The notes beneath the pieces were generated by a model that searched no databases, was not told the DNA's origin, and saw only the letters and a list, made by a program, of their open reading frames with translations. The position numbers and the translations under genes were made by a program. DNA of 37,239 nucleotides from an uncultured Ectothiorhodospiraceae bacterium (GTDB lineage: Bacteria; Pseudomonadota; Gammaproteobacteria; GCA-002705445; GCA-002716945), in assembly GCA_964342155.1 (NCBI GenBank), contig CAYFEQ010000001.1, forward strand, positions 64,761 through 101,999. Reading direction: 5' to 3'. This document shows positions 955 to 33,714 of this stretch, piece after piece; position 1 is the first letter of the stretch, and each line of letters starts with the position of its first letter.

Positions 955-969
955 ATATCGGGAGAATTT

Positions 970-2923: not shown

Positions 2924-2925
2924 AT

Positions 2926-5689: not shown

Positions 5690-5762
5690 AGTTGGATTAT
5701 GCGCTCAAATTTGTGATTAGAAATTAAAGCTTGAGGCCCAATAAATAACACAGGAGATAATA

Positions 5763-6278
5763 ATGGCAGTAGTTGATAAAGTGTTAGTAGGTGAAGCTCT
5801 AGTTGTTACCGAAGGTGGTGATAATGAAATTTCACATATTGACTTACTAATGGGTCCACGTGGATCAGCAGTAGAAGATGCGTTTTGTAATTCACTATGT
5901 AATAACAAAGATGGATTTACATCGCTATTAGCAGTGGTTGCACCTAATTTACAGTGTAAACCAAGCACAGTTATGTTTAATAAAGTAACAATAAAAGGTG
6001 CAAAACAAGCAGTACAAATGTTTGGTCCTGCACAAGCAGCTGTAGCAAGAGCTGTAACTGATTGTGTTGAAGATGGAACAATTCCAGAAAAAGAAGCCGA
6101 GGATATTTTTATCTGCGTAGGTGTATTTATTCACTGGGATGCAAGTGATGATACTAGAATCTATGATTACAACTATGAAGCTACCAAAATGGCAATAAAA
6201 AATGCTGTTGCTGGTAAACCTAGTGCTGGAGAAGTTGTAGCAGGAAAATCTACTCAACATCCATTTTCACCAAAATAA
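5763..6278 (+). CDS. fae: Formaldehyde-activating enzyme (5,6,7,8-H4MPT hydro-lyase)
   Basis: [49 protein letters not shown] and GVFIHW motifs; strong CAGGAG RBS at 5751-5756. Confidence 0.96.
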
Positions 6279-6292
6279 CAATTATGAGAATT

Positions 6293-6329
6293 GCCAACCG
6301 TGTTTCAAGCTCGGTTGGCTCTTTCTTTT
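6293..6329 (+). terminator. Probable intrinsic terminator after fae, overlapping the 3' end of orf17
   Basis: GCCAACCG (6293-6300) and CGGTTGGC (6312-6319) form a perfect 8-bp stem, followed by TCTTTCTTTT. Confidence 0.7.
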
Positions 6330-6994
6330 AGGAAGCTAAATTTCCTGAGTTTGTTCATTGATAATAAACTAGAGACAAGAACGCCACTAGCTCCTAGATT
6401 TTTTACAAACTTTATATCTAACATTGATCTAATTCCCCCAGCAACGTAATATTCAGTTTTGTATTTTTTTGTAATAAACTTTTTTATTACATGAAAGTTT
6501 GGTTTTAATTTTGTACCAACTCTTGATAAATCCATTATAATTACTTTTTTTGGATGTGTTTTTATACATCTATAAATAGATTTCGGTCCTATAATTCCAT
6601 TTTTATAGTCTATTGAACAAATATGGTTTTTGAATTTTTCTGAACTTAATTCAAAATCTTTTGCCTTTTCACTACAGAATATTGGGATGTAATTATTATA
6701 ATTTTTATCTAATTTAATCTTGTTAAGCCCTGAGTCTATCCAAAAATTAACTTTTGAAAATTTTTTTAGTATCTGTATTAAAAGATTGTGATTAACTTTG
6801 TTAAACATTATTGCATCAAGATCTGCAATGTAGATTGTTTTTGGAGAATATATATCTATTAAATGTCTAATTATTTCAACAGGCTCTGTGGTATTGTATA
6901 GTTTAGGATTTATTTTTTTATATGTGTTTCTATCGCCTTTTAAAGCTGTAACTACTTGACTATCTAATATGTCTATAACGGGAATGATGTCCAT
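6305..6994 (-). CDS. orf17: HisA/HisF-like TIM-barrel protein Orf17 of the H4MPT/methylofuran cluster
   Basis: IIPVIDI, GDRNTY, YIADLDAI, FWIDSG, IIMDLSRVG, VAGGIRS and GVLVSS motifs; cluster context. Confidence 0.85.
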   Translation of the reverse strand: MDIIPVIDILDSQVVTALKGDRNTYKKINPKLYNTTEPVEIIRHLIDIYSPKTIYIADLDAIMFNKVNHNLLIQILKKFSKVNFWIDSGLNKIKLDKNYNNYIPIFCSEKAKDFELSSEKFKNHICSIDYKNGIIGPKSIYRCIKTHPKKVIIMDLSRVGTKLKPNFHVIKKFITKKYKTEYYVAGGIRSMLDIKFVKNLGASGVLVSSLLSMNKLRKFSFLKERANRA

Positions 6995-6996
6995 CT

Positions 6997-7971
6997 ATGA
7001 TTAAGATACTAATATATGAATATGTTACAGGAGGTGGTTTAATAAATGAAGATTTAAGTTCAACTTTACTACACGAAGCCAAACTAATGACATCGAGGCT
7101 TCACAGCGATCTGAGTATATCAGATGAGGTTTCATTCAGCTTCTTCTTAGATGAAAGATTGAAGAATCTTGCTAGACCACAATCAATCCTTATAAATAAA
7201 CAGAATTCAAATAAGATCTATGATGAAAATTTTCTAAAAAAATTTGATTATGTATTGCCAATACTTCCTGAAACGAATCTCAATCTATATAAATATACTA
7301 AGTTTTTAGAAGAAAAAAAAATAAATAAAATTATTTCTGATAAACAAACAATCCTTTCTTTATCAAATAAACTATCTTTCTATAATTTGTTTATCAATCA
7401 AAAAATAAATGTCATACCAACATATAACATTAAGGAGATAAACAAAATAAAAAAAATAAAAAAATTAGTTATCAAAGATAAATACGGAGCAGGTTGTTCT
7501 TTTGTTAAAATTTTTAAAAACTCATCTAAGAAAGATTTTAAGGATTATAATAAGAATTACATTGTCCAGCCATATATCGATGGGAAACCATATAGCATAT
7601 CAGCATTCTTTGATCAAAATGATTTATATCTATTAAGTATTAATAGACAAGACATAAAAATAACAAAAAACTTTATTAAATTAAATAAAATAATTGTTAA
7701 TGATAAAATTGTAGATGATACAAAAATTTATGCCTTATTAGAAAAGATAAAATTGATATTACCAAAGTTATACGGGTATATTGGTATAGATATAATAATT
7801 AATAAAAAAGATTTATATGTTGTTGAAATAAACCCAAGACTAACAACTTCATATATTGGATTAAATGAGACTTTAGGCATTAATCTTGTTAATCTAATTA
7901 TTGGAAAAAAAATAAAGAAAAGAATTATCAGTGGAAAGAAATTTTGCATTAATTTAAATGAAAACAAATAA
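6997..7971 (+). CDS. orf1: ATP-grasp protein Orf1 (MfnD-like tyramine/tyrosine-glutamate ligase family)
   Basis: YEYVTGGG, ILPET, GAGC, VQPYIDG, GYIGID and EINPRLTTSYIGL motifs. Confidence 0.82.
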   Translation: MIKILIYEYVTGGGLINEDLSSTLLHEAKLMTSRLHSDLSISDEVSFSFFLDERLKNLARPQSILINKQNSNKIYDENFLKKFDYVLPILPETNLNLYKYTKFLEEKKINKIISDKQTILSLSNKLSFYNLFINQKINVIPTYNIKEINKIKKIKKLVIKDKYGAGCSFVKIFKNSSKKDFKDYNKNYIVQPYIDGKPYSISAFFDQNDLYLLSINRQDIKITKNFIKLNKIIVNDKIVDDTKIYALLEKIKLILPKLYGYIGIDIIINKKDLYVVEINPRLTTSYIGLNETLGINLVNLIIGKKIKKRIISGKKFCINLNENK

Positions 7972-9010
7972 AATTAAAAATTTATATCTAGGTTGGGATA
8001 TTGGAGGAGCACATATTAAGCTGTCTACTATAAAACCCAATAGTTTTTCATTTAACATATATAAATGTAACTTATGGAAATCAACTGATTTATTAAAAAA
8101 AATACTTCATTCTGTTTGTAGAAAATATAAGAGAGGATTCAATATAATAAATGTTATAACAATGTCCGGTGAAATGTGTGATATTTTTGATTCTAGGAAT
8201 CAGGGAGTTAAACATATTTTAGAAATATTTAAAAACATCAATAAAGAAAATTATGTATTCTCTACTAAGAAACCATTTTTTTTTAAACTTAGTGAAAAAA
8301 TCAATCCAGAATCTATATCATCAGCAAACTGGTTTGCAACTGCAAAGTTTCTTGAAACAAAAGTAAATAATGCAATTGCAGTTGATGTTGGATCAACAAC
8401 AACAGATATTATAGTTATAAAAAAAGGTGTCTGCATTAATAAAAATTATAGTGATTTTTCGAGACTACAATCATCAGAATTGATATATATGGGTATATTA
8501 AGAACACCAATACATGCTGTTACAAAAGAAATATATAGTGGCCAAAAGAAATTTTCTATAATACCAGAAAATTTTTCCAATATGTCTGATGTATATAGAA
8601 TTTTATCAGATATAAAACCAAAAATTGATTATTCAGAGAATTGTGATTCTAAAAACAAGTCCTATAGAAACAGTTTGGTAAGATTTTCTCGTATAATAGG
8701 CTTCGACTACCATTCAAAAAATGAAAGAATAGTGATAAATCTAGCTAAGAAAATAAAATTATCTCAAAAAAATTATCTTATGCAAAAAATTACTCATACA
8801 TTACAGCAGCATTTCCAAAGTAAAGAATCAGTAAATATTATTGGAATTGGAATAGGAAGTTTTTTAATTGAAGAGATTTCTAAAAAAATTAAAATGAGTT
8901 ATAAAGATTTTAACAGTTTTTGTCAAGGTGGTAGAAAGCAATTATTCTTGCCATCAGATATTGCGCCAGCTTACTCTATAAGTACATTATTTAAGTTAAG
9001 AAATGAATAA
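7958..9010 (+). CDS. orf9: Hydantoinase/oxoprolinase-family protein Orf9 (MfnF-like)
   Basis: GWDIGGAHIK, TMSGEMCDIF, SANWFATA, DVGSTTTDII and ELIYMGILRTP motifs. Confidence 0.87.
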   Translation: MKTNKIKNLYLGWDIGGAHIKLSTIKPNSFSFNIYKCNLWKSTDLLKKILHSVCRKYKRGFNIINVITMSGEMCDIFDSRNQGVKHILEIFKNINKENYVFSTKKPFFFKLSEKINPESISSANWFATAKFLETKVNNAIAVDVGSTTTDIIVIKKGVCINKNYSDFSRLQSSELIYMGILRTPIHAVTKEIYSGQKKFSIIPENFSNMSDVYRILSDIKPKIDYSENCDSKNKSYRNSLVRFSRIIGFDYHSKNERIVINLAKKIKLSQKNYLMQKITHTLQQHFQSKESVNIIGIGIGSFLIEEISKKIKMSYKDFNSFCQGGRKQLFLPSDIAPAYSISTLFKLRNE

Positions 9011-10364
9011 GATTGAATTTGATTATTACAGCAACACTTTAGAAATCTTTGATTTTTTGAAAGACCAAGATTGGTCAGTTTTTTTATGTAGCAATTTTGA
9101 TGTATTTGATAGAGAAAAATATGATATTATTTCCTGCTGTCCAATTAAAAAGATCATCGCATATCAAAACGCAACAATTGTTGAAACCAATGGTTCTAAA
9201 AAAGTTTTTAGAGACGACCCTATAGATGTACTTAAAAATATAATGAACAAATCTTTTTCTAGTAATCATACTGATTTACCTTTTTCCGGAGGCGCTATAG
9301 GATATTTTTCATATGACTTGGGAAATAAATATGAATCAGTTAAGCCTATTGGAGTTGATACCGATAATACTCCAATCATGGCATTTGGTATTTATGATTG
9401 GTCAATAATAATTGATCATAAATTAAAAAGGTCAATTTTGATATACACTACTGAGAATAATTTAATAAAAGAGATTATAAAAAACTTTAAGAAGAAAAAG
9501 TTTTCATTAATCAAAAAACGTGAATTTTCTATTCATTCACAGTTTGAATCTAATTTAAGTTATGAAGAATATGTTGAAAAATTTAATTCTATAAAATCCT
9601 ATATTGAAAAAGGGGATTGTTATCAAATAAATTTTGCACAACGATTTTCTCTTTCATATAAAGGAGATACCTGGGAAATATTTAAGAAGGTTTTGACAAA
9701 ATACAAAGCTCCATACTCTTCATATATGAATTTCCCATTTGTTAAAATTTTAAGTTATTCTCCAGAAAGATTTTTGCAAATAGAAAATAATCATGTAGAA
9801 ACAAAACCTATCAAAGGCACTAGACCAATACATCAAAACAAACAAAAAAATTCTCAATTAAAAAAAGAACTTGTTGATTCAAATAAAGATAAAGCTGAAA
9901 ATCTTATGATAGTTGATTTATTGAGAAATGATTTAGGCAGAAACTGTAATTTCGGCTCTATAAAGGTAAAAAAACTTTTTGAAATAGAAACTTTTTCAAA
10001 TGTGCATCATTTAGTTAGCACCATAGAAGGTGAGATATCAAAAAAGAGTGATGTTTTTAAATTAATAAGAGGCTGTTTTCCTGGAGGATCAATCACAGGT
10101 GCTCCAAAAATACGATCTATGCAAATAATTAATGAACTTGAACCAAATAGAAGAAGTATTTATTGTGGGTCAATTGGCTATATTAGTTTTAATGATAAGG
10201 TAGACTTAAATATTGCTATTAGAACTATTATTGCAAATAAAGAACATCTTTATTTCTGGGGTGGCGGAGGTATAGTTTATGATTCTAATGTTAAATCAGA
10301 ATTTCAAGAAACTTTAGATAAAGTTAATCCAATTATAAATGCTCTCAAATCAAGCACTACTTGA
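9003..10364 (+). CDS. pabB: Aminodeoxychorismate synthase component I
   Basis: PFSGGAIGYFSYD, GDCYQIN, SPERFL, TKPIKGTRP, AENLMIVDLLRNDLGR, FPGGSITGAPK and NIAIRT motifs; fits supply of p-aminobenzoate for methanopterin. Confidence 0.9.
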   Translation: MNKIEFDYYSNTLEIFDFLKDQDWSVFLCSNFDVFDREKYDIISCCPIKKIIAYQNATIVETNGSKKVFRDDPIDVLKNIMNKSFSSNHTDLPFSGGAIGYFSYDLGNKYESVKPIGVDTDNTPIMAFGIYDWSIIIDHKLKRSILIYTTENNLIKEIIKNFKKKKFSLIKKREFSIHSQFESNLSYEEYVEKFNSIKSYIEKGDCYQINFAQRFSLSYKGDTWEIFKKVLTKYKAPYSSYMNFPFVKILSYSPERFLQIENNHVETKPIKGTRPIHQNKQKNSQLKKELVDSNKDKAENLMIVDLLRNDLGRNCNFGSIKVKKLFEIETFSNVHHLVSTIEGEISKKSDVFKLIRGCFPGGSITGAPKIRSMQIINELEPNRRSIYCGSIGYISFNDKVDLNIAIRTIIANKEHLYFWGGGGIVYDSNVKSEFQETLDKVNPIINALKSSTT

Positions 10365-11036
10365 ATTTATAGCTAATGAAACTTGTTTCAATAAGTTAAT
10401 ATCAATCTCGCTTCTATCAGTATGATTTGAACATAATTGCCCACGGAAGCCTAGGAAATCTGGATTGTATCTTTTAAGATTATTAATATCACTAATCTTG
10501 AGTGAGCCAGATAATCCGCAAAGCGTTTTATTTTTTTTATTTATTGATATAAATTTTTTTATTTCTGAAGGTTTTAAGATTTCAGTCATAGATTTAGAAT
10601 CCTTATTAACTGTATCAATCATAATTCCTTGATAGCCCATATTAATAAGATCCCGCATTATATCTAAATCAAATGTTTTATCTGCAAATAGAACACAAAT
10701 AGGTTTCGTTTGTGTAAAAGAAAATTTCTCTAATAGTAGCTTATGCTCATCAATCATAGTTTTGTCAAATAAGCCAATTTTTATATATTCAATTTTCTGA
10801 TTTATGATCTTAGATAATATTGAAACTGTTTCTGGATTGTTTGGATTCCTATTATTGCCTAAGGTCACACTAATTTTATGATTCTGTAAGGTTTGTTTAG
10901 CTTTATTGATAATATCTAAGCCAACAAAGCCAAGAGCACCATCATCGACATTTTTTAAATCAACAATATCAATTTTTGCATTACTAATTTTTTTTGCCTC
11001 ATCAATATTCTTAATACTTGCAAGAAAACCAGTCAT
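10350..11036 (-). CDS. mfnB: (5-formylfuran-3-yl)methyl phosphate synthase-like protein (Orf22, DUF556)
   Basis: FLASI, IDIVDLKN..GALG, YIKIGLF, VLFAD, GIMIDT.NK, GLSGSL and PDFLGFRG.LC motifs. Confidence 0.82.
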   Translation of the reverse strand: MTGFLASIKNIDEAKKISNAKIDIVDLKNVDDGALGFVGLDIINKAKQTLQNHKISVTLGNNRNPNNPETVSILSKIINQKIEYIKIGLFDKTMIDEHKLLLEKFSFTQTKPICVLFADKTFDLDIMRDLINMGYQGIMIDTVNKDSKSMTEILKPSEIKKFISINKKNKTLCGLSGSLKISDINNLKRYNPDFLGFRGQLCSNHTDRSEIDINLLKQVSLAINSSSA

Positions 11037-11593
11037 TATTTTTCTCTATAATCAGCAATTTTATTTTCTATCCAGTTCCAGGCTTCCTTTTCCCTATCAC
11101 CAGCAGTTTTTTCTATACCTATTTTTAGATATTCAATCTCTTTTAAAATTTTATCTAAGGATATACGTCCTAATCTACTAACCAAAACAGAAGCTTCAAT
11201 GACAGAGAACTGAGCTCTGTTAAAACCTAAGAATGGACTATGGACTTTTTTATTTAAGATTTGGCATATAACTTTAGGCCTGACTTCATCATCAATTATA
11301 TCTATTACAGAAATTTCAAAGTGAGAGTTTACATTTTCTAGTCTTGGAATATCTGTGGTATTAAGATTAATTAAGGGCCAATCTTTTTTTATTCCACAAA
11401 TTATGCCTGCAAATATTCTTACATCATCCGTAAAATTTATTACAGCATTTTTTTGTGAAATTAGATTCACTAATGTTTTTGATGGTTTAAAAGGGGAAAC
11501 AAAAACTTCCTGCTGATTCATTTTAATTCCCATTGGGGCAATATGTACTTCACCGTCATTAGATTTAGTAGTTACTATAACTTCATGTATCAT
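11036..11593 (-). CDS. orf19: DUF447-family protein Orf19 (methanopterin cluster)
   Basis: IHEVIVTT, HIAPMG, PFKPSKTL.NL, GFNRAQ..VIEA.VLVSRL and EKTAGDRE motifs. Confidence 0.85.
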   Translation of the reverse strand: MIHEVIVTTKSNDGEVHIAPMGIKMNQQEVFVSPFKPSKTLVNLISQKNAVINFTDDVRIFAGIICGIKKDWPLINLNTTDIPRLENVNSHFEISVIDIIDDEVRPKVICQILNKKVHSPFLGFNRAQFSVIEASVLVSRLGRISLDKILKEIEYLKIGIEKTAGDREKEAWNWIENKIADYREK

Positions 11594-12978
11594 TTCTTTT
11601 TATATGTTGATCCAGTAGGTTTAAAAGACATTTTATCATCATCTTCTTTTTCAACTAAACAGCCCCAGGATAATTCTTCATCTTGAGAGTAGAATTTACC
11701 TAATTGATATGCAATTTGTGCTCTTGCTAGTTCGACACCAAGATAGAAGGCATGACCGGAATCATTATCAACATTAAGATTTTTGAAAAAGTCAAAAGGG
11801 TCTTTTGCAGTTTCAAACCCATCTCTGTTGAAAACATGAATTCCTTCATCTGTAACCATAATTCTATAGCTAGGGTCTTTAATATCTTTTGATAATTCTA
11901 TAACCTCATCATAAGAAAATTTAAAAGGCTTGTCTTCGTGAGTTGTTAGTAAATTATTGCTTATATGTTTGGGCGTCATATTACTCACACTTGATGCGTG
12001 AAGTATTCTGCGCGCTATATCAGTCTCTTTTATAACTGTTTTGCAATGATCACTAACTTGTGTGGTTAAAATATGATTTATTTTTAATTCTGAAGTTATA
12101 CCCATCAATAATAGAGTAAGACCAGTTGTATCAGCATGAGATAGTTCTGTTAAATTACCAGAACCCATCATGATATGTATATCAGGATATTTTTCTCTTA
12201 ACTCAGCATATCTTAAAATAGATTTTGTAAATCCAAAATTAATAGGATCTAGGATAGAGTCAGCTATAAAAGTTCTTTTTTGTTCAATACATTTATCTAT
12301 AATTTTATATAATTCATCTAGTTTTCCATCTAGCGGAATAAGAATAGGGTACGAATCTACTTGATCTAAGATTTTAAAATTATCTGACTTTATGCTCAAA
12401 ATATAATCTGCTCCTGCTTTACCACCCCTGATTAGCTCTTTATCATTATGAGAATCGACACTTACAAAAAAATCTAACCGTTTTAATTCCTGCACTACTT
12501 CTTCCAAATGTTCAAACTTAATATTTGGTAAACACCCAATGTCTATTACATCGGCCCCATTATCTCTATAAAAATTTGCTTGATTTACAATCTGTTCTAG
12601 ACTCATATTTGGTGCGTCAGTAATTTCAGCAAATATAGAAACCTCATATTGTGATAAATCGTGCTTGAATGATTCTTTACCAAATAAATTAGGCAAGTCC
12701 TTGAGTTCCTCGGGCCCACGAACAAAATCAACTTTTAATTTTTTTGATAATGCTGAGATATCACCTCTAGCCCTCCCTGGGATTATAACCTTATCAAAGT
12801 TAGAGACATCTCCAATCCTTCTTTCTATCATTTGTGTTGTCAATAATGATGCAACGCTGATACTTAAGTTACGTATTTCATATTCAAAAGGAAGCTTTCC
12901 CATTTCATCTATAACTCTCTTTAAACTTCTTTCAGCAAGTTTTCCCGTAATAAAAAGAATTTTTTCTTTTAACGCCAT
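11590..12978 (-). CDS. orf20: Dihydropteroate synthase-like protein Orf20 (methanopterin biosynthesis)
   Basis: ILFITGKLAE, RGPEELKDLP, IFAEITDAP, GADVIDIGCLP, SVDS, ILDPINFGF, GNLTEL, HAFYLGVELARAQIA and QDEELSWG motifs. Confidence 0.88.
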   Translation of the reverse strand: MALKEKILFITGKLAERSLKRVIDEMGKLPFEYEIRNLSISVASLLTTQMIERRIGDVSNFDKVIIPGRARGDISALSKKLKVDFVRGPEELKDLPNLFGKESFKHDLSQYEVSIFAEITDAPNMSLEQIVNQANFYRDNGADVIDIGCLPNIKFEHLEEVVQELKRLDFFVSVDSHNDKELIRGGKAGADYILSIKSDNFKILDQVDSYPILIPLDGKLDELYKIIDKCIEQKRTFIADSILDPINFGFTKSILRYAELREKYPDIHIMMGSGNLTELSHADTTGLTLLLMGITSELKINHILTTQVSDHCKTVIKETDIARRILHASSVSNMTPKHISNNLLTTHEDKPFKFSYDEVIELSKDIKDPSYRIMVTDEGIHVFNRDGFETAKDPFDFFKNLNVDNDSGHAFYLGVELARAQIAYQLGKFYSQDEELSWGCLVEKEDDDKMSFKPTGSTYKKK

Positions 12979-13502
12979 TTTTTTAGTACTTTATTTAATT
13001 CATCAATATTTTTGACAACATCAATATTTTTAAATTTTTTTAATAATTTATAATTTTTAAGATCAATCTCTCTAGGGTAAACCGTCACCATTTTACCTGG
13101 AGCGGGCGTTATAATTACTGGTTCTGTGTCACACGCTAAAACAATTGAATGAACATGACATTTGCCAGCTTGCGCAAAAATATTTGTTATCAGATTGTCA
13201 GAGAAACCATAAGCCATTTGAGCAACTGTATTAGATGTTGCTGGTGAAACAATTAGAACCTTATAAACATCTTCATAAAATAAACTTACTGGAGCAGAAC
13301 TTGCAGTCACATCTTTAAAAACCTTTATCTTCTTTTTTTTAAGATCGCTTAACTTATAACCATACCATTTTAAAACCTCTTCTCCTGCTTTACTCAAGAA
13401 CAAATCTATATTGTCTAAAGAATTAATAATCTCCATTGATTCTTTTAAAAAATGACCGGACCCTGTTATCCCCCAGGCTATTCTTTTATTTTTACTATTC
13501 AT
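12969..13502 (-). CDS. dmrB: AfpA/DmrB-type flavoprotein (dihydromethanopterin reductase)
   Basis: AWGITGSGH, DLFLS.AGEEVL, SPATSNTVA, FAQAGK and ACDTEP motifs; no Fe-S ferredoxin insert. Confidence 0.82.
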   Translation of the reverse strand: MNSKNKRIAWGITGSGHFLKESMEIINSLDNIDLFLSKAGEEVLKWYGYKLSDLKKKKIKVFKDVTASSAPVSLFYEDVYKVLIVSPATSNTVAQMAYGFSDNLITNIFAQAGKCHVHSIVLACDTEPVIITPAPGKMVTVYPREIDLKNYKLLKKFKNIDVVKNIDELNKVLKKWR

Positions 13503-15969: not shown

Positions 15970-16300
15970 GGGAGTCAGCAATGCAGTTGCTGCAACTTGC
16001 AGAGGAAAGTCCGGGCTCCATAGGCAAGAACGCCAGGTAACTCCTGGGAAACGTGAGTTTACGGAAAGTGCTACAGAAAATAACCGCCAGAAATCTGGTA
16101 AGGGTGAAAAGGTGAGGTAAGAGCTTACCACGTATTTGGTAACAAATACGGCTAAAGCAAACCCCGTTCGGAGCAAGGCAAATTTATAGCGTAATGTCAG
16201 CCTAAGACTTGCTATATGGTATGCTGCTTGAGGTTTTTGGTGACAGAAACCCTAGATTAATAACTGCACTCGACAGAACCCGGCTTATTTGTTGACTCTC
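15970..16300 (+). ncRNA. rnpB: RNase P RNA, bacterial type A
   Basis: Conserved GAGGAAAGTCCGGGCTCC and GACAGAACCCGGCTTAT segments; terminal P1 helix GGGAGTCAGCAA/TTGTTGACTCTC; usual position upstream of mraZ. Confidence 0.96.
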
Positions 16301-16415
16301 AGCCCATTTTCTTATAATTAAATTAATATAAACTTGTAAGTTATTGTTTATAAAAGATTTAATAAAACCATTTAAAAAATCACCATATAAACACATAAAT
16401 TGATCAGTGTGATGC

Positions 16416-16444
16416 TTGCATATGTTAAAAAAAACGCATATAGT
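16416..16444 (+). promoter_or_regulatory. Sigma70 promoter of the dcw operon (Pmra)
   Basis: TTGCAT (16416-16421), a 17-nt spacer, then TATAGT (16439-16444). Confidence 0.65.
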
Positions 16445-16488
16445 GTTGATAAATGGTGTTTTTTGTTAAATTGTGGAGAATAATGGTA
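16443..16488 (+). promoter_or_regulatory. MraZ autoregulatory binding repeats (10-bp period)
   Basis: GTGTTG (16443), ATGGTG (16453), TTGTTA (16463), GTGGAG (16473) and ATGGTA (16483) at exact 10-nt spacing, resembling known GTGG[A/T]G MraZ boxes. Confidence 0.65.
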
Positions 16489-16491: not shown

Positions 16492-16944
16492 ATGTTTAGA
16501 GGCATACATAATATAAATCTTGACGCTAAAGGTAGGCTAGCTATCCCTACTAAGTATAGAAGCGCCATAAATGATCAATCATCTGGGAATATGATAATTA
16601 CAGTTGATCCAGGTGAAAAATGCCTTCTGCTTTACCCGCTATCTTCTTGGAATGATATTGAGAAACAAATCAATGACTTACCTGCTTTTCAAAAAAACTC
16701 CCGTAGAGTACAAAGATTATTAGTTGGTCATGCAGAAGATATACAGATGGATAAAGCTGGAAGAATTTTAATATCTCAGCCCTTAAGAGCTATCGCAGAA
16801 TTAAGTAAAAAAGTCACGATGATTGGCCAAGGAAAAAAATTTGAAATTTGGGGAAATAATCACTGGGAAAACAAGATATCAAAATGGAGGACTGAAGAAA
16901 CAGATGAGTCTGAAGAATCGGTTTTAGGAGGAATTAGAATCTGA
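16492..16944 (+). CDS. mraZ: Transcriptional regulator MraZ
   Basis: MFRG...NLDAKGRLAIP and MDKAGRILI repeats, GQGKKFEIW; likely start is the ATG at 16492. Confidence 0.95.
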   Translation: MFRGIHNINLDAKGRLAIPTKYRSAINDQSSGNMIITVDPGEKCLLLYPLSSWNDIEKQINDLPAFQKNSRRVQRLLVGHAEDIQMDKAGRILISQPLRAIAELSKKVTMIGQGKKFEIWGNNHWENKISKWRTEETDESEESVLGGIRI

Positions 16945-17141
16945 TGGATATAACAAGGTGTTTTAGAACATTGGGTATAAGTGGTCATGAAGATATGAGT
17001 GCCATCAAAAAGGCTTTCCTTAAAGTTGCTTTGAAATATCACCCTGATAAAACAAAAAATGATGTTAATTTGCTTCAAAGATTTATAGAAGCTCGGAATG
17101 CATATGACAGCATCATCAAATTTAAAAAGGCTATTAAATGA
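16944..17141 (+). CDS. Stand-alone J-domain (DnaJ-domain-only) protein, 65 aa
   Basis: LGI...IKKAF.K.ALKYHPDK...F..A.NAY J-domain signature with intact HPD; AGGAGG at 16926-16931; TGATG overlap with mraZ and ATGA overlap with rsmH. Confidence 0.88.
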   Translation: MDITRCFRTLGISGHEDMSAIKKAFLKVALKYHPDKTKNDVNLLQRFIEARNAYDSIIKFKKAIK

Positions 17142-18085
17142 GTAACTTAGCAAAACATGTGCCAGTCATGCAAAATGAATCACTTAATGCATTAAATATA
17201 CAAAAAGCTGGGATTTATGTTGATGCTACTTTTGGTTTTGGAGGTCATTCTCAAGCCATATTAAGTAAATTAGATGAAGAAGGCAGGCTATATGCGATAG
17301 ATAAAGATACTTCAGCAATTGAATTAGCAGATAAAAGAATTATAAAAGATGAAAGATTTACCCTGAAACAAGGATGTTTCTCCTCTCTTGAATCCTTTTC
17401 AAAAGAATGGGGAATTCAAGGGTCAGTAAATGGCATATTATTTGATCTTGGTGTTTCATCTGAACATTTAGAAAATCCAAAAAGAGGATTTAGTTTTCTA
17501 AGAGAAGGCCCAATTGATATGAGGTTTGATCAAAGTTCAGGTAATTCTGCAGGTGATTGGCTGGCTTCAGTTAGCGAAAACACGTTAGCTAAGATAATTA
17601 AAGAATATGGAGATGAACGTTACGCAAAAAGAATCGCCAAAGGGATTGTTACTGAAAGGGTTAAAGAAAGGATTAATACTACTAAAGATTTAGTAAATAT
17701 AATCAATAAAGCCATACCAAAAAATGAAACCAAAAAACATAATGCAACGCGAACATTTCAAGCAATCAGAATACATATCAATCAAGAATTAGAAACACTT
17801 AAGAAATCATTAGAAAAAACTTATAACATATTAGCTCCAAAAGGAAGGTTGGTATTGATAACATATCATTCCTTAGAAGAACGAATAATAAAGGATTTTA
17901 TAACTCTTACAGATAAAAGTTTATCTGCACCAAAAGACTTACCTTTAACTGAACAATTTCTAACAAAGATGTTTAAAATCATCAACAAACCGCTTAAACC
18001 TACAGACGAAGAAATAGAAATTAATAAAAAATCTAGATCAGCAAAACTAAACGTTTTAGAGAAATATAATGAAAATAATTCTTAA
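17138..18085 (+). CDS. rsmH: 16S rRNA m4C1402 methyltransferase
   Basis: HVPVM, YVDATFGFGGHS, LFDLGVSS, RGFSF..EGPIDMR, ATRTFQAIRI.IN.EL and YHSLEERI motifs. Confidence 0.95.
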   Translation: MSNLAKHVPVMQNESLNALNIQKAGIYVDATFGFGGHSQAILSKLDEEGRLYAIDKDTSAIELADKRIIKDERFTLKQGCFSSLESFSKEWGIQGSVNGILFDLGVSSEHLENPKRGFSFLREGPIDMRFDQSSGNSAGDWLASVSENTLAKIIKEYGDERYAKRIAKGIVTERVKERINTTKDLVNIINKAIPKNETKKHNATRTFQAIRIHINQELETLKKSLEKTYNILAPKGRLVLITYHSLEERIIKDFITLTDKSLSAPKDLPLTEQFLTKMFKIINKPLKPTDEEIEINKKSRSAKLNVLEKYNENNS

Positions 18086-18338
18086 TATTTCAATTTTTTT
18101 TGTGATAGCTTTTTCATCTTTTTTAGTTATATATACTAAACATCAAAATAGAATTATGAATATTCAAATAGAAAGTGTTGAAAAAGAATTATCAATAAAA
18201 GTTAATCAATATAAGGAACTATTAAATATCAAAACAAATTTATTAGAGAAAGAATTAATGAGAGAGGGGTTTAAGAAGAGTTTAGGGATGGATATACCCT
18301 CAAAAGATAGAATTATTTATTTAGATTTAGCTGAGTAG
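18069..18338 (+). CDS. ftsL: Cell division protein FtsL
   Basis: Small bitopic protein right after rsmH: N-terminal TM helix, H..R, coiled coil and LGM..P tail. Confidence 0.75.
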   Translation: MKIILNISIFFVIAFSSFLVIYTKHQNRIMNIQIESVEKELSIKVNQYKELLNIKTNLLEKELMREGFKKSLGMDIPSKDRIIYLDLAE

Positions 18339-18354
18339 GCTGGAGGTTAGTAAT

Positions 18355-19497
18355 ATGTTTGAGTTAATTGAAAATTATAGTCAGAATGCCGTGATTAAAG
18401 TCATTGGTGTTGGCGGTGGCGGCGGAAATGCTGTTCAATCGATGTTAGAGTCAAAGATACACGGTGCTGAATTCATAGTAGCGAATACCGATGCTCAAGC
18501 TTTGAATGACATAAAAGGTGCCACAACAGTCCAATTGGGTTCTGAAATTACAAAAGGACTTGGAGCAGGTGCTGATCCAGAAATAGGTAAGCAGGCTGCA
18601 GATGAAGATAGGGATAAGATTCAAGATGCAATACAAGGAGCTGATATGTTATTTATTGCTGCTGGTATGGGAGGTGGCACTGGGACAGGTGCAGCACCTG
18701 TAATAGCCCAATGTGCACATGATATGGGCATCCTAACGGTTGCAGTTGTAACAAAACCATTTGATTGGGAAGGAGTTGAAAGGAAGAAACATGCCGATGA
18801 TGGTATAGCTAAATTAGAAGATTGGGTTGATTCTCTAATTATTCTTCCAAACTCTAAACTTGAAGAAGTCTTTGGTGGGAATGCACCAATATTTGATGCA
18901 TTTGTCCATGCAAATGATGCTCTTCGAGGTGCAGTTAAAGGTATCGCTGAGATAATAACCATTAGAGGTTTAATTAATGTTGATTTTGCAGATGTTAAAA
19001 CTGTAATGTCAGGTAAAGGTAAAGCTATGATGGGATCTGGTGTTGCAAGAGGTGAAGGACGCTCGGAAGAAGCAGTAAGTCTGGCTCTTAGCAGTCCTTT
19101 ATTAGAGAATATCGATCTACATGGTGCTAGTGGTGTTTTAGTTAACATTACTGCAGGAGAAGACCTATCTGTCAGTGAATATAATAGCATTGGAAATACA
19201 ATAAAACAGATTGCTGCAGATGATGCAACAATCATTACGGGTTGTATTAAAGAAGAAGATGCAAGTGGTGAACTTAGAGTTACTATCATCGCAACAGGTT
19301 TTGATGAAAGTAAAGAATCTGAAGAATCTACAACATTGACGGATGAAAAACAATTAGAAAATCAGGTGTCACCATTAAGACCAGTTCAAGAAACTATGTT
19401 TGAAGAAAAATCACCTCAACTTTCAACTGATAATTCTGAAAGTAAAGATGGAGATGATTTAGACATCCCTGCTTTTTTAAGGCAACAAGCTGATTAG
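18355..19497 (+). CDS. ftsZ: Cell division protein FtsZ (unusual position)
   Basis: IKVIGVGGGGGNAV, GAGADPEIG, GMGGGTGTGAAP, INVDFADV and C-terminal DIPAFLRQQAD; GGAGGT RBS at 18342-18347. Confidence 0.98.
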   Translation: MFELIENYSQNAVIKVIGVGGGGGNAVQSMLESKIHGAEFIVANTDAQALNDIKGATTVQLGSEITKGLGAGADPEIGKQAADEDRDKIQDAIQGADMLFIAAGMGGGTGTGAAPVIAQCAHDMGILTVAVVTKPFDWEGVERKKHADDGIAKLEDWVDSLIILPNSKLEEVFGGNAPIFDAFVHANDALRGAVKGIAEIITIRGLINVDFADVKTVMSGKGKAMMGSGVARGEGRSEEAVSLALSSPLLENIDLHGASGVLVNITAGEDLSVSEYNSIGNTIKQIAADDATIITGCIKEEDASGELRVTIIATGFDESKESEESTTLTDEKQLENQVSPLRPVQETMFEEKSPQLSTDNSESKDGDDLDIPAFLRQQAD

Positions 19498-19500
19498 AAA

Positions 19501-21240
19501 ATTATAAACAACAGCAGACAAAGCGCATGGCGGCAATATTTCATTTACCTTATTGCCGCCACTTTTTTTATATTTATTTTAATAAGAGTAGTATTACTTC
19601 AAGTTTTTGATACTGACTGTTTTTTATTAAATAAAAATAAATGTAAAAACAACTTAAGTTCAGTTGCAGATAAACGCCAAATTGTTAATAGAGTTATTGA
19701 TACTAGTAGAGGAACAATATTTGATAGAAACAATGAAATCCTCGCAATGAGTCTTCCAAGAAAAACATTATGTATTAATCCAAATATGTTAAGTAAACTC
19801 TCCAAAGAAGAAATAATAAAATATAAACCACTATTAAAAATACTTGCAACTGATGAAACTAGATTTTGGAAATTGATAAACAAATATAAAAAAAGAAAAG
19901 AGTTTTATCTTAGAAGAAAGATCAATGACAAATTAGTTTATAAAATTAATCAATTAAACCTACCTTTTGTATATTTTATTAAAGAATATCATCGTGTATA
20001 TCTTGGAGGTAAAGCCTTTTCAAATGTAATTGGCTTTACTGATATAGATGATGTTGGTCAAGAAGGGATTGAATTGTCTAAAAATGAATCACTTACATCA
20101 ACAAAAGGGTTAAAGAAAATAAAAAAAGATAATTTAGGTAGATCCATCCAAACTATTGAAATAATTAAACAACCAATTTCTGGAAAAGATATTTATTTAT
20201 CATTAGACAAAAATATTCAAATAATTGGTTATAACGTCTTAAAGAAATATGTTGAAAAATATTCAGCTGATAGTGCATCTTTAGTACTTGTTAAAAATAA
20301 AACTGGAGAAATTATTTCTATGGTAAATTACCCAGCATTTAATCCAGACATTCGACATGAGATGAAAGGAGTTAAAATAAAAAACAGAGTAGCTACTGAA
20401 GTATTTGAACCAGGATCTACAATGAAACCTTTCATTATCCTTGCAGCCTTAAATGCTAATTCTGTCAATCAGCAGGACTTAATAGATACGACACCAGGTA
20501 TAATCAAAATTGGTGAAAAAAAAATTAAGGATCCACGTAATTATGGGAAATTAACACTCTCACAAATTATTGAAAAATCGAGTAATGTTGGAGCTGTTTT
20601 AGTATCTAGGAGTTTAGATAAAAAAGATTTATGGAATACATTAACATCATTACAATTTGGACAGAACTTGTATACTGGTTTTTCCGGAGAACAATTTGGT
20701 GAACTAAATCATCATTCACAGTGGAAGTCAGTTAATCAGGAAACGATAGCTTATGGTTACGGAATTTCTACAACATTACTACATTTATCTAGCGCATATT
20801 CTATTCTTGCAAATCATGGAAAATCTATACAACTAACTTATTTAAGAGTTGAAAGCGATGATGAAATTTTTGAGGAAGATATTATTGATGCAACTTTATC
20901 AAAAGATATATTGAAAATGATGATTCAAGTAGTTAAAAAAGGAACAGGAACTAAGGCATCTTTAGATAAATATACGGTTGCTGGTAAGACGGGGACCGTT
21001 CAAATCTTAAAGAAAAAAGGATATACATCAGAGGAACATAATACATTATTTGTGGGAGTAGTCCCCGCTACTAATCCACAGTATGTTGCTGCTATAATAG
21101 TTAGAAAGCCTAATCCAGGTAAAGATAAGGTATCAGGTGGAAAAAATGCTGCTCCGATTTTCAAAGAATTTATGAGTCAATCACTAAACCTTTTAAGGGT
21201 ATATCCAGATAAAAAAATAGTGGAAAATGAAAAAGAATAA
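19501..21240 (+). CDS. ftsI: Septal peptidoglycan transpeptidase FtsI (PBP3); start codon non-canonical or unresolved
   Basis: The frame is open from 19498 and reads KIINNSRQSAWRQYFIYLIAATFFIFILIRVVLLQV...SRGTIFDRN, giving the WR motif, TM helix and RG.I.DR. Catalytic motifs are EPGSTMK, SSN and KTGT. The first ATG (19747) would remove the membrane anchor. Confidence 0.9.
   Translation: MINNSRQSAWRQYFIYLIAATFFIFILIRVVLLQVFDTDCFLLNKNKCKNNLSSVADKRQIVNRVIDTSRGTIFDRNNEILAMSLPRKTLCINPNMLSKLSKEEIIKYKPLLKILATDETRFWKLINKYKKRKEFYLRRKINDKLVYKINQLNLPFVYFIKEYHRVYLGGKAFSNVIGFTDIDDVGQEGIELSKNESLTSTKGLKKIKKDNLGRSIQTIEIIKQPISGKDIYLSLDKNIQIIGYNVLKKYVEKYSADSASLVLVKNKTGEIISMVNYPAFNPDIRHEMKGVKIKNRVATEVFEPGSTMKPFIILAALNANSVNQQDLIDTTPGIIKIGEKKIKDPRNYGKLTLSQIIEKSSNVGAVLVSRSLDKKDLWNTLTSLQFGQNLYTGFSGEQFGELNHHSQWKSVNQETIAYGYGISTTLLHLSSAYSILANHGKSIQLTYLRVESDDEIFEEDIIDATLSKDILKMMIQVVKKGTGTKASLDKYTVAGKTGTVQILKKKGYTSEEHNTLFVGVVPATNPQYVAAIIVRKPNPGKDKVSGGKNAAPIFKEFMSQSLNLLRVYPDKKIVENEKE
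19528..19569 (+). terminator. Intrinsic terminator-like hairpin downstream of ftsZ, inside the ftsI coding sequence
   Basis: TGGCGGCAATA (19528-19538) and TATTGCCGCCA (19551-19561) form a perfect 11-bp GC-rich stem, followed by C and T7. Confidence 0.8.
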
Positions 21241-27531: not shown

Positions 27532-28613
27532 TGACCGAAAAGTTTATTTCTATACTTGCTAGTGGGACAGGGGGGCATGTCTATCCTGCATATACAATAG
27601 CAAATGAATTAGTTAAAAAAGGATATAAGATTATTTGGATAGGGACAAAGGAAGGAATTGAAAATTCAGTTGTTAAGAATGACTCAATAGTAATTAGACA
27701 TATTGATTCTGCTGGAATACGTGGAAAATCTTTTTTTAAAAAAATTACTGGTTTTTTTCTCTTATTCAAATCTATGTTTCAAGTATATTTCATCATAAAA
27801 AAATATAAGCCAGTTCTGGTTATAGGATTTGGTGGATATGTTAGTGTTTCAGGATCAATTATTTCTTATTTTTTTAAGACTCCCTTAATAGTGCATGAAC
27901 AAAACTCTATTGCAGGTTCAGCAAATAAAATTAATTATTTCTTTTCTAAACTTGTTTTTGAAACTTTCCCAAATAGTTTTAGCAAAGTTGAGAAAAAAAT
28001 TATTCATACAGGTAATCCAGTCCGAGAGATATTTTCGTCCTTAGAAAAACCAGAAGAAAAATATATATCTCATAATCCTTATCTAAATATTCTAATAATG
28101 GGTGGCAGTCAGGGGTCATCTTTTTTTAATGAATGTTTGCCATTTGCATTTTCATATTTTGATAATCAAAATATTTCAATCAAACATTTATCCGGCAAAG
28201 ACAATAAAGATATAGTAAAAGAAAGATATAAAAAATATAATATTAAAGCAGAAGTTATAGAATATGCTAATGATGTGGATACTTTGTATAATTGGTCAAG
28301 TTTAATTATTTGTAGAGCTGGATCTACAACTATTTCAGAAATTTCAAAAATTGGTAGAGCAGTGATTTCAGTGCCATTCCCATATGCAACTGATAACCAT
28401 CAGTTTTATAATGCAAATTATTTAGCTAATCAATCTGCATGCATATTAATCGAACAGACTGACACTTTTGTAGAAGATTTTGTAAATACAATAAATATTT
28501 TACTTAATAACCAAAAGAGAATGTATACACTATCAAAAAATATTCAAGAAATTTTTCCAAAAGATACAATTAAAACAATTATCGATAGATCTACTCAAAT
28601 CATCAATGAATAA
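27531..28613 (+). CDS. murG: Undecaprenyl-PP-MurNAc-pentapeptide GlcNAc transferase
   Basis: GTGGHVYP, GFGGYVS, HEQN, TGNPVR, GGSQG, RAGSTT and HQ..NA motifs. Confidence 0.95.
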   Translation: MTEKFISILASGTGGHVYPAYTIANELVKKGYKIIWIGTKEGIENSVVKNDSIVIRHIDSAGIRGKSFFKKITGFFLLFKSMFQVYFIIKKYKPVLVIGFGGYVSVSGSIISYFFKTPLIVHEQNSIAGSANKINYFFSKLVFETFPNSFSKVEKKIIHTGNPVREIFSSLEKPEEKYISHNPYLNILIMGGSQGSSFFNECLPFAFSYFDNQNISIKHLSGKDNKDIVKERYKKYNIKAEVIEYANDVDTLYNWSSLIICRAGSTTISEISKIGRAVISVPFPYATDNHQFYNANYLANQSACILIEQTDTFVEDFVNTINILLNNQKRMYTLSKNIQEIFPKDTIKTIIDRSTQIINE

Positions 28614-29985
28614 TTCCTTTGATCAAATTAAAAATCTAAAGAAAATACATTTTATTGGAATTGGTGGTTCAGGAATGTATGGAATCGCTGAAGTATTACT
28701 TAACTTAGGGTGCTCTGTTTCTGGATCTGATTTAATTCAAAGTACTATAACAAAAAGACTAAAGTCTTTAGGAGTTAAAATCTACAATACGCACTCAGAA
28801 TCAAATCTTAAAAAAGTTGACTTAGTTGTTTTTTCAAACGCTATAAAGAAAAATAATCCAGAATTAAGATTTGCAGAGAAAAATAAAATCACAATAATTC
28901 CAAGAGCAAAAATGTTGGCAGAATTGATGAGATTTAAGTATGGGATTACAGTTGCGGGATCTCATGGAAAAAGCACAACGACTAGTTTGATTAGTTGGAT
29001 TCTAGCAGAGAGCAAACTTGATCCAACATACATAGTTGGCGGTAAATTAAAAAGCAGCAATAATCATGGCAGACTTGGGCATGGAAAATATCTTATAGCA
29101 GAAGCAGATGAGAGCGATTCAAGTTTTCTTTATTTGTCTCCAGAACTTGGAGTTATAACAAATATTGATAATGAACATCTTGATAATTATGATAATAATT
29201 TCAATAACCTTCAAAAAGCATATTTAACTTATATCAATAATATACCGTTTTATGGACGAATATTTATAAATGGTGATGATAAAAATATTAAGCCAATTAT
29301 AAAGAAAACAAATCGATCTAAAGTTACTTTTGGTTTTAATGATAAAAATGATTTTTATGCAAAAGACATTATTTATAATAAAAATGGAATGAGCTTTTTA
29401 ATTCTTAATAATGGATCGACATATAGAATAAAAACGAAACTTTTTGGGAAGCATAATATATTAAATATTCTTGCATCTTTTTCAATAGCATTATATTTAA
29501 AGATTCCATCAAAAAAGATTATAAAAGCAATTAAAGGGTTTGAGGGTATATCGAGAAGATTTGATATATATCACAATTTCAAATCTAAATTTGATGAGTT
29601 TACTTTAATAAATGATTATGGCCATCATCCTACTGAAATAAATTATACAGTAGAAACAATAAGAGAAATTTGGAAAAATAAAAAGATCTGTATGATTTTT
29701 CAACCTCATAGATACAGTAGAACACAAAATTGTCTTAGTCAGTTTATAGAAGTTCTATCTAGGGTGGATAAACTTATACTTACTGGGACATACTCTGGTG
29801 GCGAAAGAAAAACAAAGTTTTCATCATATTATTTGTATAATCAATTGAAAGAAAATAATATAAATTGTGAATATGTTAAAGATATTGATAAAATTCCTAA
29901 TAAACTCAAAAATACATTTGGAAATGATTATATAGTATTAGTACAAGGTGCTGGTAATATTTCTCAAGTAATAAAACTATTATAA
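28606..29985 (+). CDS. murC: UDP-MurNAc--L-alanine ligase
   Basis: HFIGIGGSGM, GSHGKSTTT, EADESD, NDYGHHPTEI, FQPHRYSRT and QGAG motifs. Confidence 0.96.
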   Translation: MNNSFDQIKNLKKIHFIGIGGSGMYGIAEVLLNLGCSVSGSDLIQSTITKRLKSLGVKIYNTHSESNLKKVDLVVFSNAIKKNNPELRFAEKNKITIIPRAKMLAELMRFKYGITVAGSHGKSTTTSLISWILAESKLDPTYIVGGKLKSSNNHGRLGHGKYLIAEADESDSSFLYLSPELGVITNIDNEHLDNYDNNFNNLQKAYLTYINNIPFYGRIFINGDDKNIKPIIKKTNRSKVTFGFNDKNDFYAKDIIYNKNGMSFLILNNGSTYRIKTKLFGKHNILNILASFSIALYLKIPSKKIIKAIKGFEGISRRFDIYHNFKSKFDEFTLINDYGHHPTEINYTVETIREIWKNKKICMIFQPHRYSRTQNCLSQFIEVLSRVDKLILTGTYSGGERKTKFSSYYLYNQLKENNINCEYVKDIDKIPNKLKNTFGNDYIVLVQGAGNISQVIKLL

Positions 29986-32460: not shown

Positions 32461-33714
32461 ATGATGAATAATCTCGATAAGAGTGAAGCCATTGTAGCTT
32501 TGGATGTTGGAACAACAAAAATCCTTTGTCTTGTTGCTGACTATAACGATGAGGGTAATCTCAGAATTGTAGGAATTGGCGATGAACCCTGTGATGGGCT
32601 AGAAAGAGGTGTTATCTCAGAGATACAGTCTACGGTATCAAGTATAAAAAGATCTGTTAATAAAGCCAGAAGTATCTCTTCTCACAAGATTGAATCCGTA
32701 ACAACTGGTATAGCTGGAAGTCATATACAATGCTTTAATGGTAATGCAGAAATAAATATTACAAATGATGAAGTTACCGAAGAAGATAAAATAAAGGTTG
32801 TAGAAAATGCTAGAGATATACAAATCCCCAATGATCAAGAAGTACTTCATGTTATTCCTCAGTATTATTCGATTGATGGGCAGATTGGAATAAGAGAGCC
32901 AATAGCAATGGCAGGTGCAAGACTGGGGGTCAATGTACATATAATAACTTCTTCTACTACAGCAAAAAAAAATCTAACTAAATGTATAGAGAACAGTTTG
33001 TTGGATGTTGATCATTTTGTTCTAGAACCAGTAGCCTCAAGCTATTCTGTGTTATCTGAAGAAGAACGTTCCTTGGGTGTTTGTTTAGTTGATATTGGAG
33101 GTGGAACAACTGACGTTGCAATTTTCACAGATGGAACTATTAAACATACATCTGTTATACAGATTGCCGGTCAAATGATAACTAACGATATTAAAATTGG
33201 TTTGCGCACATCAACTGAAGCAGCGGAAGAAATAAAAATACAACATGGATCTCTCATGAATAATCCTGATGACAGTGAAAAAATGATAACAGTACCTTCT
33301 GTTTCGGATAAACCAGATAATGAAGTTAGCCTAACTAATTTAAGTCATATTATAGGATGCAGGATTGATGAAATTTTTGAAAAAATACAGATTGAAATCG
33401 AAAACAGTGGTCATTCAAGCAAAATAAGATCAGGAATTGTTTTTACTGGTGGTGGAGCAAGACTATCTGGTCTTGATGATTATGCTGAAGCAAAATTTTC
33501 ATGCCCAGCTAGGATAGGTGCCCCCGCTAATATTCCAGGAATTGGTAATGTGAGTGGGAAAGCTAGGTATTCAACTGCCGTTGGACTCCTACTCTACAGA
33601 GAAGAAAAATTGAAAGATATGCCTCACAGGAGTACTTTGGAAGATAATCCTATATTAGCCTTCATTAATAGTTTTTGGACTAAATTATCTGCATATTTTC
33701 ATAAAGAACTTTAA
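32461..33714 (+). CDS. ftsA: Cell division protein FtsA
   Basis: LDVGTTK, VDIGGGTTD, AEEIK..HG, VFTGGG, YSTAVGL and an amphipathic C-terminal helix. Confidence 0.96.
   Translation: MMNNLDKSEAIVALDVGTTKILCLVADYNDEGNLRIVGIGDEPCDGLERGVISEIQSTVSSIKRSVNKARSISSHKIESVTTGIAGSHIQCFNGNAEINITNDEVTEEDKIKVVENARDIQIPNDQEVLHVIPQYYSIDGQIGIREPIAMAGARLGVNVHIITSSTTAKKNLTKCIENSLLDVDHFVLEPVASSYSVLSEEERSLGVCLVDIGGGTTDVAIFTDGTIKHTSVIQIAGQMITNDIKIGLRTSTEAAEEIKIQHGSLMNNPDDSEKMITVPSVSDKPDNEVSLTNLSHIIGCRIDEIFEKIQIEIENSGHSSKIRSGIVFTGGGARLSGLDDYAEAKFSCPARIGAPANIPGIGNVSGKARYSTAVGLLLYREEKLKDMPHRSTLEDNPILAFINSFWTKLSAYFHKEL

Follow-up and report, generated by a model that had tools for sequence, protein, structure and literature searches.

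In the genome of an uncultured Ectothiorhodospiraceae bacterium (assembly GCA_964342155.1), the cell-division gene ftsZ was found between ftsL and ftsI, at the front of the gene cluster for division and cell wall (dcw). The stretch analysed, hereafter the window, consists of 37,239 nt of contig CAYFEQ010000001.1. The arrangement is real and common to the whole lineage (GTDB GCA-002716945, hereafter the family), and it uses known kinds of signal in a new place. It likely goes back to one ancestral translocation, and the new ftsZ-ftsI junction likely acts as a built-in step down in expression; we give this reading a probability of about 0.6.

Gene identities were assigned by profile search with NCBIfam and Pfam. 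The genes of the window lie on one strand in the order mraZ, J-domain open reading frame (ORF), rsmH, ftsL, ftsZ, ftsI, murE-murF-mraY-murD-ftsW-murG-murC-murB-ddl-ftsQ, ftsA, lpxC. The complete canonical dcw set (mraZ, rsmH, ftsL, ftsI, mur, ftsW, ddl, ftsQ, ftsA, ftsZ) is present and both canonical adjacencies, ftsL-ftsI and ftsA-ftsZ, are broken. A first-pass annotation, made from the sequence of the window, had already read the order mraZ-J-rsmH-ftsL-ftsZ-ftsI, with an intact ftsZ lying 16 nt behind ftsL under a strong GGAGGT ribosome-binding site (RBS) and with lpxC 105 nt behind ftsA. All of this was borne out by the sequence, the profile searches (TIGR00065 for ftsZ) and the order in related genomes. 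The 16 nt separate the ftsL stop from the ftsZ ATG, and GGAGG was found 5-9 nt upstream of this ATG in 23/23 family genomes.

Twenty-five family genomes were available. The order rsmH-(ftsL)-ftsZ-ftsI was found in all 23 that gave an ftsZ match; ftsL was detected in 20 of these and the remaining three keep a fitting 285-nt gap. The two genomes without an ftsZ match are 87% and 72% complete and lack rsmH too. ftsA adjoins lpxC in 24/24 family genomes with an ftsA match. The usual proteobacterial order, described in the first-pass annotation as keeping ftsL next to ftsI and ftsZ after ftsA, held in the 44 other gammaproteobacterial families checked. Outgroups have rsmH-(ftsL)-ftsI and ftsA-ftsZ in 16/16 genomes. 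Canonical order was also found in 28/28 further loci of the class, one per family (27/27 leaving out the unpublished G141), taken from the 30 loci listed for a search that scored 151 genomes, and in 77/78 mostly Burkholderiales loci, the last one being cut by a contig end. Eighty metagenome loci were sorted into 58 close ones, all informative and all with ftsZ directly before ftsI (58/58), eight that were too short and 14 distant ones (34-39% identity) that retain the usual order. Two additional records with the family order were left out of the counts as possible duplicates. The ftsL-ftsZ-ftsI order is universal in this lineage, and the synteny survey that the annotation had proposed found it in none of the 44 other families. 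No published description of this order, or of a non-AUG ftsI, was found in the literature searched, in which subscription journals were thinly covered. Three irregularities are probably assembly or binning artefacts: an ftsZ split in two frames in G017 (C13:17697-18784), two extra FtsZ matches at 47% in G010 (C2, C6; genome 5% contaminated) and two ftsA matches in G013 (C17, C19).

The source assembly is fragmented (59 contigs, 4% contamination) and the family is long-branched in both protein trees described below, as might be expected if the order were a misassembly or if a foreign ftsZ had replaced the resident gene. Both are extremely improbable. Misassembly is refuted because 22 other assemblies and 58 metagenome contigs show this order too, and because independent contigs bridge both ftsZ junctions. 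A contig of run X2, which may be the source of the window DNA, spans 17500-21000 unbroken with 4 differences. Contigs of run X3, from another study, bridge ftsL-ftsZ (17500-18665) and ftsZ-ftsI (19261-19623). The annotation had advised a check of the junctions by reads. The ftsZ junctions (about 18345, and ftsZ-ftsI) are bridged by independent contigs, and the ftsA-lpxC junction (33714-33820) is supported by its presence in the 24/24 family genomes with an ftsA match.

FtsZ and FtsA trees were compared (65 sequences each). The 20 family members included are monophyletic with a support of 1.0 and have the same long-branched sister in both trees, and 13/17 internal family splits are common to the two. 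The identity of FtsZ to other Gammaproteobacteria (mean 51.5%) matches that of MraY (52.1%). The protein has the GTPase and C domains and the C-terminal peptide, and its tree position matches that of FtsA, as for a native gammaproteobacterial FtsZ. The solved structures best related to it are 9isk, 8h1o and 2vaw, which we take to be enterobacterial and Pseudomonas FtsZ. Xenologous replacement was rejected on the agreement of the trees, which at their present density would not reveal a donor among closely related Gammaproteobacteria that they do not include. Because the trees agree, one translocation of the native ftsZ in the family ancestor is the simplest reading, and a likely one. The phylogenetic comparison that the annotation had recommended for choosing between translocation and replacement therefore came out for translocation.

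The annotation had the gene order right but missed two features of the ftsZ-ftsI junction, an ftsI without a normal start and a hairpin. The ftsI frame of the window begins directly behind the TAG of ftsZ; it reads KIINNSRQSAWRQYF and continues into the membrane anchor. Its first ATG, GTG or TTG is the ATG at 19747 (residue 83), beyond the anchor. Initiation there was rejected, because the anchor would be lost along with 82 codons that bear a clear signature of coding; the candidate starts are ATT at 19501 and ATA at 19504. Four of the 23 genomes have their first canonical start no later than the codon with which the anchor begins; in eight it falls inside the anchor and in 11 after it. The 19 genomes without ATG, GTG or TTG before the anchor all fit a non-AUG gene, a near-cognate codon being available. 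For comparison, the other 17 genes have a canonical start at the expected place in 344/345 gene-genome pairs. The N-terminal stretch of ftsI is stop-free in frame in 23/23 genomes, with stops in both other frames in 23/23, and its differences are distributed 1064/565/339 over codon positions 3/1/2. By this signature, the stretch upstream of the first canonical start is coding. As a separate observation, infC of the source genome has no ATG before its conserved start, where ATA is a candidate start codon.

In 19/19 genomes of five genera and in 57/57 scored metagenome loci (49 distinct), ftsI lies in the +1 frame. This frame opens 17 nt before the ftsZ end and holds CTG at -8 and/or ATT at -5 in all of these genomes and loci. 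The linker to the anchor varies in steps of 3 nt only (22, 25, 28 or 31 nt), apart from one mis-anchored metagenome locus (L249); another (L244) was not anchored. Together, the opening of the frame, the CTG or ATT codons and the 3-nt steps imply that the final codons of ftsZ are where translation enters the ftsI frame. A TAAG lying 20 nt before the ftsZ end is invariant (23/23) and is extended by the arginine codon AGG in 17/23 genomes, against a background use of 7-20%. This TAAG(G) could be a Shine-Dalgarno remnant for ftsI.

The same junction might be read as a recoding site, in which a small share of ribosomes passes the ftsZ stop by a +1 frameshift, or by readthrough in the window's genus. 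The resulting minor FtsZ-FtsI fusion would tie the Z-ring to the septal transpeptidase and stand in for a ZipA anchor. The frames do abut or overlap with no canonical start, the topology is workable (cytoplasmic FtsZ, anchor, periplasmic PBP3), and ZipA gave no match to one Pfam query in the source assembly (98% complete). Such a fusion is nevertheless very unlikely, both as an explanation of the junction and as an anchor of the ring. Two recoding routes would be needed (+1 in 19 genomes; frame 0 in four, one of them with TAA), and the P-site codons GAC/GAT are unable to re-pair in +1. A stop-less junction was seen in 0/58 metagenome loci. Of 7997 candidates scored, the best 120 longer FtsZ proteins included no FtsZ-PBP fusion and none above 59% identity. 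Also rejected was a -1 frameshift at the T TTT TTA that precedes the stop, since it leads into the wrong frame and lies 48 nt from the hairpin.

This hairpin was found in the same register in 23/23 genomes, with energies of -13 to -22 kcal/mol. At most 3/300 synonymous recodings were as stable, and z scores against such recodings ranged from -2.9 to -7.3 (23/23). Since the hairpin window had been chosen after being seen, controls were run. When 54-nt loci of the cluster were ranked by stability, the hairpin came among the first five in 20/23 genomes and at ranks 7, 12 and 13 in the others. In 12 genomes, 169 codon windows covering mraZ through ftsI were compared, and the hairpin was the strongest (mean z -3.86; next -1.97). 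Outgroup ftsI starts gave best z scores of -2.8 to +0.2 in the 10/16 loci scored, the motif search having failed on six. In a gap-free alignment, 93% of the cells were paired and 8/11 pairs showed double changes (38 such cells), which was reached in 0/500 shuffles; pairing fell to 34-59% when the register was slid. Two covariation measures that count types were unexceptional (65 and 81 of 500). In 54/57 metagenome loci, at least 9/11 stem pairs form. Across the family, the hairpin lies 22-31 nt past the ftsZ stop and coincides exactly with the membrane-anchor codons, and its loop is of 8-12 nt in most genera. An Rfam search of the window gave no family for it, rnpB being the only match, and the terminator scan did not list it because a 12-nt loop exceeds the limit of the scan.

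The hairpin could be a leaky intrinsic terminator in ftsI, stopping most transcripts past ftsZ. In the window, a C and seven T follow its GC-rich stem of 11 bp, and a T-run of 7-8 within 16 nt occurs in 7/23 genomes. Internal U-poor terminators have been reported to set the stoichiometry of ATP-binding cassette (ABC) transporters (PMC9045158). RNA contigs of two studies stop upstream of the hairpin, at 19512 and 19510, fully aligned while DNA contigs continue, and a third stops at 19483, which is a weak hint. Against termination, the 9 nt after the stem contain a mean of 5.7 T versus 5.8 in synonymous recodings, a test that fixes the amino acids, so that selection for Phe codons lies outside its reach. 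The longest T-run is at most 3 in 9/23 genomes, and the loops measure 8-12 nt in most genera. The stable GC-rich stem of a terminator is thus there, and the U-tract is present in the window without being conserved family-wide. As for protective 3' structures, their sequence trait was found, namely a conserved stable hairpin in the downstream 5' coding region, with a dispensable U-tract. Of 26 protective 3' hairpins in E. coli, 17 are reported to be without a U-tract and to sit within the coding sequence of the gene downstream (PMC5927463). Because the U-run is no richer than the protein explains, the sequence of the hairpin looks more like that of an mRNA-protecting structure than of a terminator. 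A terminator is a possible explanation, to be held with low confidence.

An effect on translation only, with mRNA levels unchanged, is less probable still. Here, the hairpin would delay ribosomes and thereby let them re-initiate at the weak start, or would pace the insertion of FtsI into the membrane, in agreement with the fixed 22-31 nt spacing and the exact overlap with the anchor codons. The footprint of an initiating ribosome is about 15-20 nt. The hairpin begins 25-39 nt past the candidate starts, probably outside this footprint, and the RNA contigs of two studies that stop at its foot speak weakly against unchanged mRNA. RNA contigs from five runs include none over ftsI at about 19760-21000; this was not used as evidence, as lack of cover cannot rank genes.

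In the step-down reading that we prefer, one message from the mraZ promoter (Pmra) would carry ftsZ. Initiation at ftsZ would be strong, given its GGAGG. Translation of ftsI would be weak and would begin, coupled to the ftsZ stop, at a non-AUG codon; the predicted codon is CUG or AUU across the stop in five genera and AUU or AUA just past it in the window. Cleavage in the thinly translated ftsI would be followed by trimming back to the stem, where the hairpin would be a barrier to 3'-5' exonucleases and protect the ftsZ part. Leaky termination could add to this where a U-run exists, as in the window. The outcome would be much FtsZ and little FtsI and products of the genes behind it, ftsA included. 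RNase E/G, Rho and initiation factor 3 (IF3) are encoded in the source genome, which also has an MreB-like match and gave none for MinC with one Pfam query. FtsZ is present in thousands of copies in E. coli. Reported E. coli copy numbers are 144-349 for PBP3 and 575-984 for FtsA (PMC4428075). AUA, AUC, AUU and CUG initiate there at 1-2% of AUG, and infC and pcnB are given as the only confirmed cases (10.1101/063800). Excess IF3 is reported to lower re-initiation and non-canonical initiation alike (PMC2268962).

Several points weigh against this scheme. The observations concern the anatomy of the junction (order, ftsZ RBS, missing canonical start, coding signature, covarying hairpin), from which we infer every functional step. 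The genomes are related, so that the counts overstate independence. If ftsZ is transcribed from Pmra alone, its expression must in addition be lifted above that of mraZ-rsmH-ftsL, and no conserved 5' structure or family-wide internal promoter was found. The RNA contigs break off some 50 nt upstream of where the protected end is predicted (about 19561), and a contig is in any case unable to map an end. CTG and ATT stand at the overlap partly because FtsZ ends in Ala-Asp-stop codons. In the window's genus (4 genomes), ftsI is in frame 0 and the codon after the stop is ATT, ATC, ATT or ATG, with no shared start; TAAGG is too distant from these codons to serve them. The 16S rRNA, with its anti-Shine-Dalgarno sequence, is missing from the assembly. 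Finally, ftsI does have a canonical start in four family genomes.

This last point would also suit a neutral accident, fixed early in a streamlined lineage, after which the junction features merely repaired a broken ftsI start and set no useful ratio. A single event accounts for all genomes, and the cluster is labile in other respects, murC being gone from 11/20 loci and a J-domain gene having entered. We consider this unlikely: the stem has been maintained via double changes within a coding region, and although a single substitution could restore a canonical start, 19/23 genomes still lack one. These two facts argue for current selection and say nothing on origin.

Upstream of mraZ, a sigma70-like motif and four boxes at a 10-nt period were read by eye in 23/23 family loci. 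Known MraZ boxes are GTG(G/T) with 6-nt spacers (PMC12957436). Degenerate boxes with the 10-nt period of canonical dcw clusters are seen in the sequence. Between mraZ and ftsZ, no family-wide internal sigma70 promoter was found; one site at -555 recurs in 6/23. With the promoter and boxes in all 23 loci and no shared internal promoter, the direct Pmra/MraZ control of ftsZ proposed in the first-pass annotation is plausible. It is less new than was implied there, given that mraZ to ftsZ is reported as one MraZ-regulated mRNA in Burkholderia cenocepacia, without internal promoters (PMC7761207). The proposed uncoupling of ftsZ from ftsQ-ftsA found no support: the genes are co-oriented in one cluster, and the scan of the window found no convincing terminator between ftsZ and ftsA, with a loop limit that also misses the ftsI hairpin. 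The features of the region are given in Table 1.

Table 1. Features of the ftsZ region in the window (positions are those of the window).
Feature	Position	Strand	Basis and remarks
Predicted Pmra-like sigma70 promoter, TTGCAT-17-TATAGT (TTGCA-N18-TATAGT)	16416-16444	+	Sequence; below the threshold of the consensus scan
Four degenerate MraZ-box-like tetramers (ATGG, TTGT, GTGG, ATGG), 10-nt period	16453-16486	+	Putative, from sequence
mraZ	16492-16944	+	TIGR00242 over cut-off; ATG of MFRG motif at 16492, other in-frame ATGs at 16453 and 16483
Stand-alone J-domain gene, 65 aa, HPD motif	16944-17141	+	PF00226, E 1.4e-11
rsmH (mraW)	17138-18085	+	TIGR00006 over cut-off
ftsL	18069-18338	+	TIGR02209 (E 3e-9) and PF04999 (E 1.6e-4), both under curated cut-offs; position and size fit
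ftsZ RBS, GGAGGT	18342-18347	+	Sequence
ftsZ, 380 aa, intact, single copy, translocated	18355-19497	+	TIGR00065 over cut-off; one match in the source assembly; trees
TAAGG in ftsZ 3' end	19478-19482	+	Possible Shine-Dalgarno for ftsI; closes the +1 frame (stop)
ftsI (PBP3) frame	19498-21240	+	Open from 19498; anchor residues 10-34; SxxK, SxN and KTG intact
Hairpin in ftsI codons 10-21, 11-bp stem, 12-nt loop	19528-19561	+	z -3.45 vs shuffles; then C and seven T (19563-19569)
ftsA, ftsZ no longer next	32461-33714	+	TIGR01174 over cut-off
Promoter-like TTAACA-17-TATACT before lpxC, at the vacated ftsZ site	33771-33799	+	Scan; similar sequence visible in several family loci
lpxC, 105 nt after ftsA	33820-34746	+	TIGR00325 over cut-off

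The source assembly is of 1.1 Mb, the window has about 30% GC, and near-identical matches of the window DNA were found in marine sequencing runs. FtsI has the N-terminal anchor, the dimerisation and transpeptidase domains and the SxxK, SxN and KTG motifs of FtsI/PBP3. In the family, it carries a conserved TDCF..N...CK.N insertion with two invariant cysteines just past the anchor (residues 38-51, 19612-19653), possibly a periplasmic disulfide loop. The J-domain ORF overlaps mraZ and rsmH, has an intact HPD and was present in 23/23 family loci and 0/16 outgroup loci; its product may connect division proteins with DnaK. Two genera (9 loci; 28606-29985 in the window) have murC within the cluster, but it is absent between murG and murB in 11/20 loci of the other four genera (L144-L146, L151-L153, L156, L158-L161). 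A GTC motif, mostly TGTCT(A/T)A, was seen by eye 13-14 nt past the ftsA stop in 24/24 family loci (33726-33732 in the window), in an otherwise divergent spacer at the place vacated by ftsZ. A class A RNase P RNA (Rfam, 15971-16303) lies directly upstream of the mraZ promoter. Further upstream (103-13502) is a large tetrahydromethanopterin/methanofuran-linked C1 cluster (mch, fae, mptG-like, mfn-like, dihydromethanopterin reductase-like). The GTDB order GCA-002705445 has been described as low in GC, basal, methylotrophic and marine, with which these C1 genes agree; the low completeness scores reported for the order do not match the source assembly.

The family amounts to a natural experiment, being a free-living marine lineage that has the full set of wall and division genes and in whose common ancestor the ftsL-ftsI and ftsA-ftsZ adjacencies were both broken. 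Both are hereby shown to be dispensable. The junction suggests how a 1-Mb genome could set a many-fold excess of FtsZ from one promoter, via signals inside coding sequence. Should its start be confirmed, ftsI would be among the very few essential bacterial genes with CUG or AUU as initiation codon. In these genomes, gene callers restricted to ATG, GTG and TTG would call FtsI without its membrane anchor.

Compared with the canonical dcw clusters of E. coli and B. cenocepacia, as described in PMC7761207, the family shares the genes, the single strand, the order save for ftsZ, a MraZ-type promoter at the front and lpxC at the end. It differs in the position of ftsZ, which is shifted upstream by about 14 kb and separates ftsL from ftsI, in the J-domain gene behind mraZ and in the absence of a canonical start from most ftsI genes. 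According to a survey of dcw order, genes are lost or leave the cluster, and synteny persists among those inside it (PMC8871954).

The hairpin resembles the protective 3' structures found in operons with differential decay (malEF type; Dar and Sorek, 2018; PMC5927463) in being stable, conserved and placed in the 5' coding part of a downstream gene that is less translated, here by prediction. As there, a U-tract is not required and RNase E/G is present. It lies closer to the upstream gene, 31-64 nt past its stop, whereas the E. coli mean is 107 +/- 56 nt into the gene (PMC5927463). It also arose after a gene translocation in a division operon, and is known here from its sequence. With the internal terminators that set the stoichiometry of Ruminiclostridium ABC importers, it shares a stem-loop directly after an abundant gene; those are described as intergenic, whereas here the stem is coding and its U-tract is not conserved (PMC9045158). 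As in the AUU-initiated infC and pcnB of E. coli, a near-cognate start is predicted, with low expression and sensitivity to IF3 as its expected effects (10.1101/063800; PMC2268962). Here, the gene is an essential septal transpeptidase, and its predicted CUG or AUU overlaps the upstream stop. In the Mycoplasma mraZ-mraW-ftsA-ftsZ cluster, ftsZ is also close behind a MraZ-bound promoter in a reduced genome (PMC12957436), MraZ binding being predicted in our case. That cluster came about via loss of wall genes, with ftsA-ftsZ kept (PMC12957436), whereas in the present family ftsZ itself moved and all wall genes were kept.

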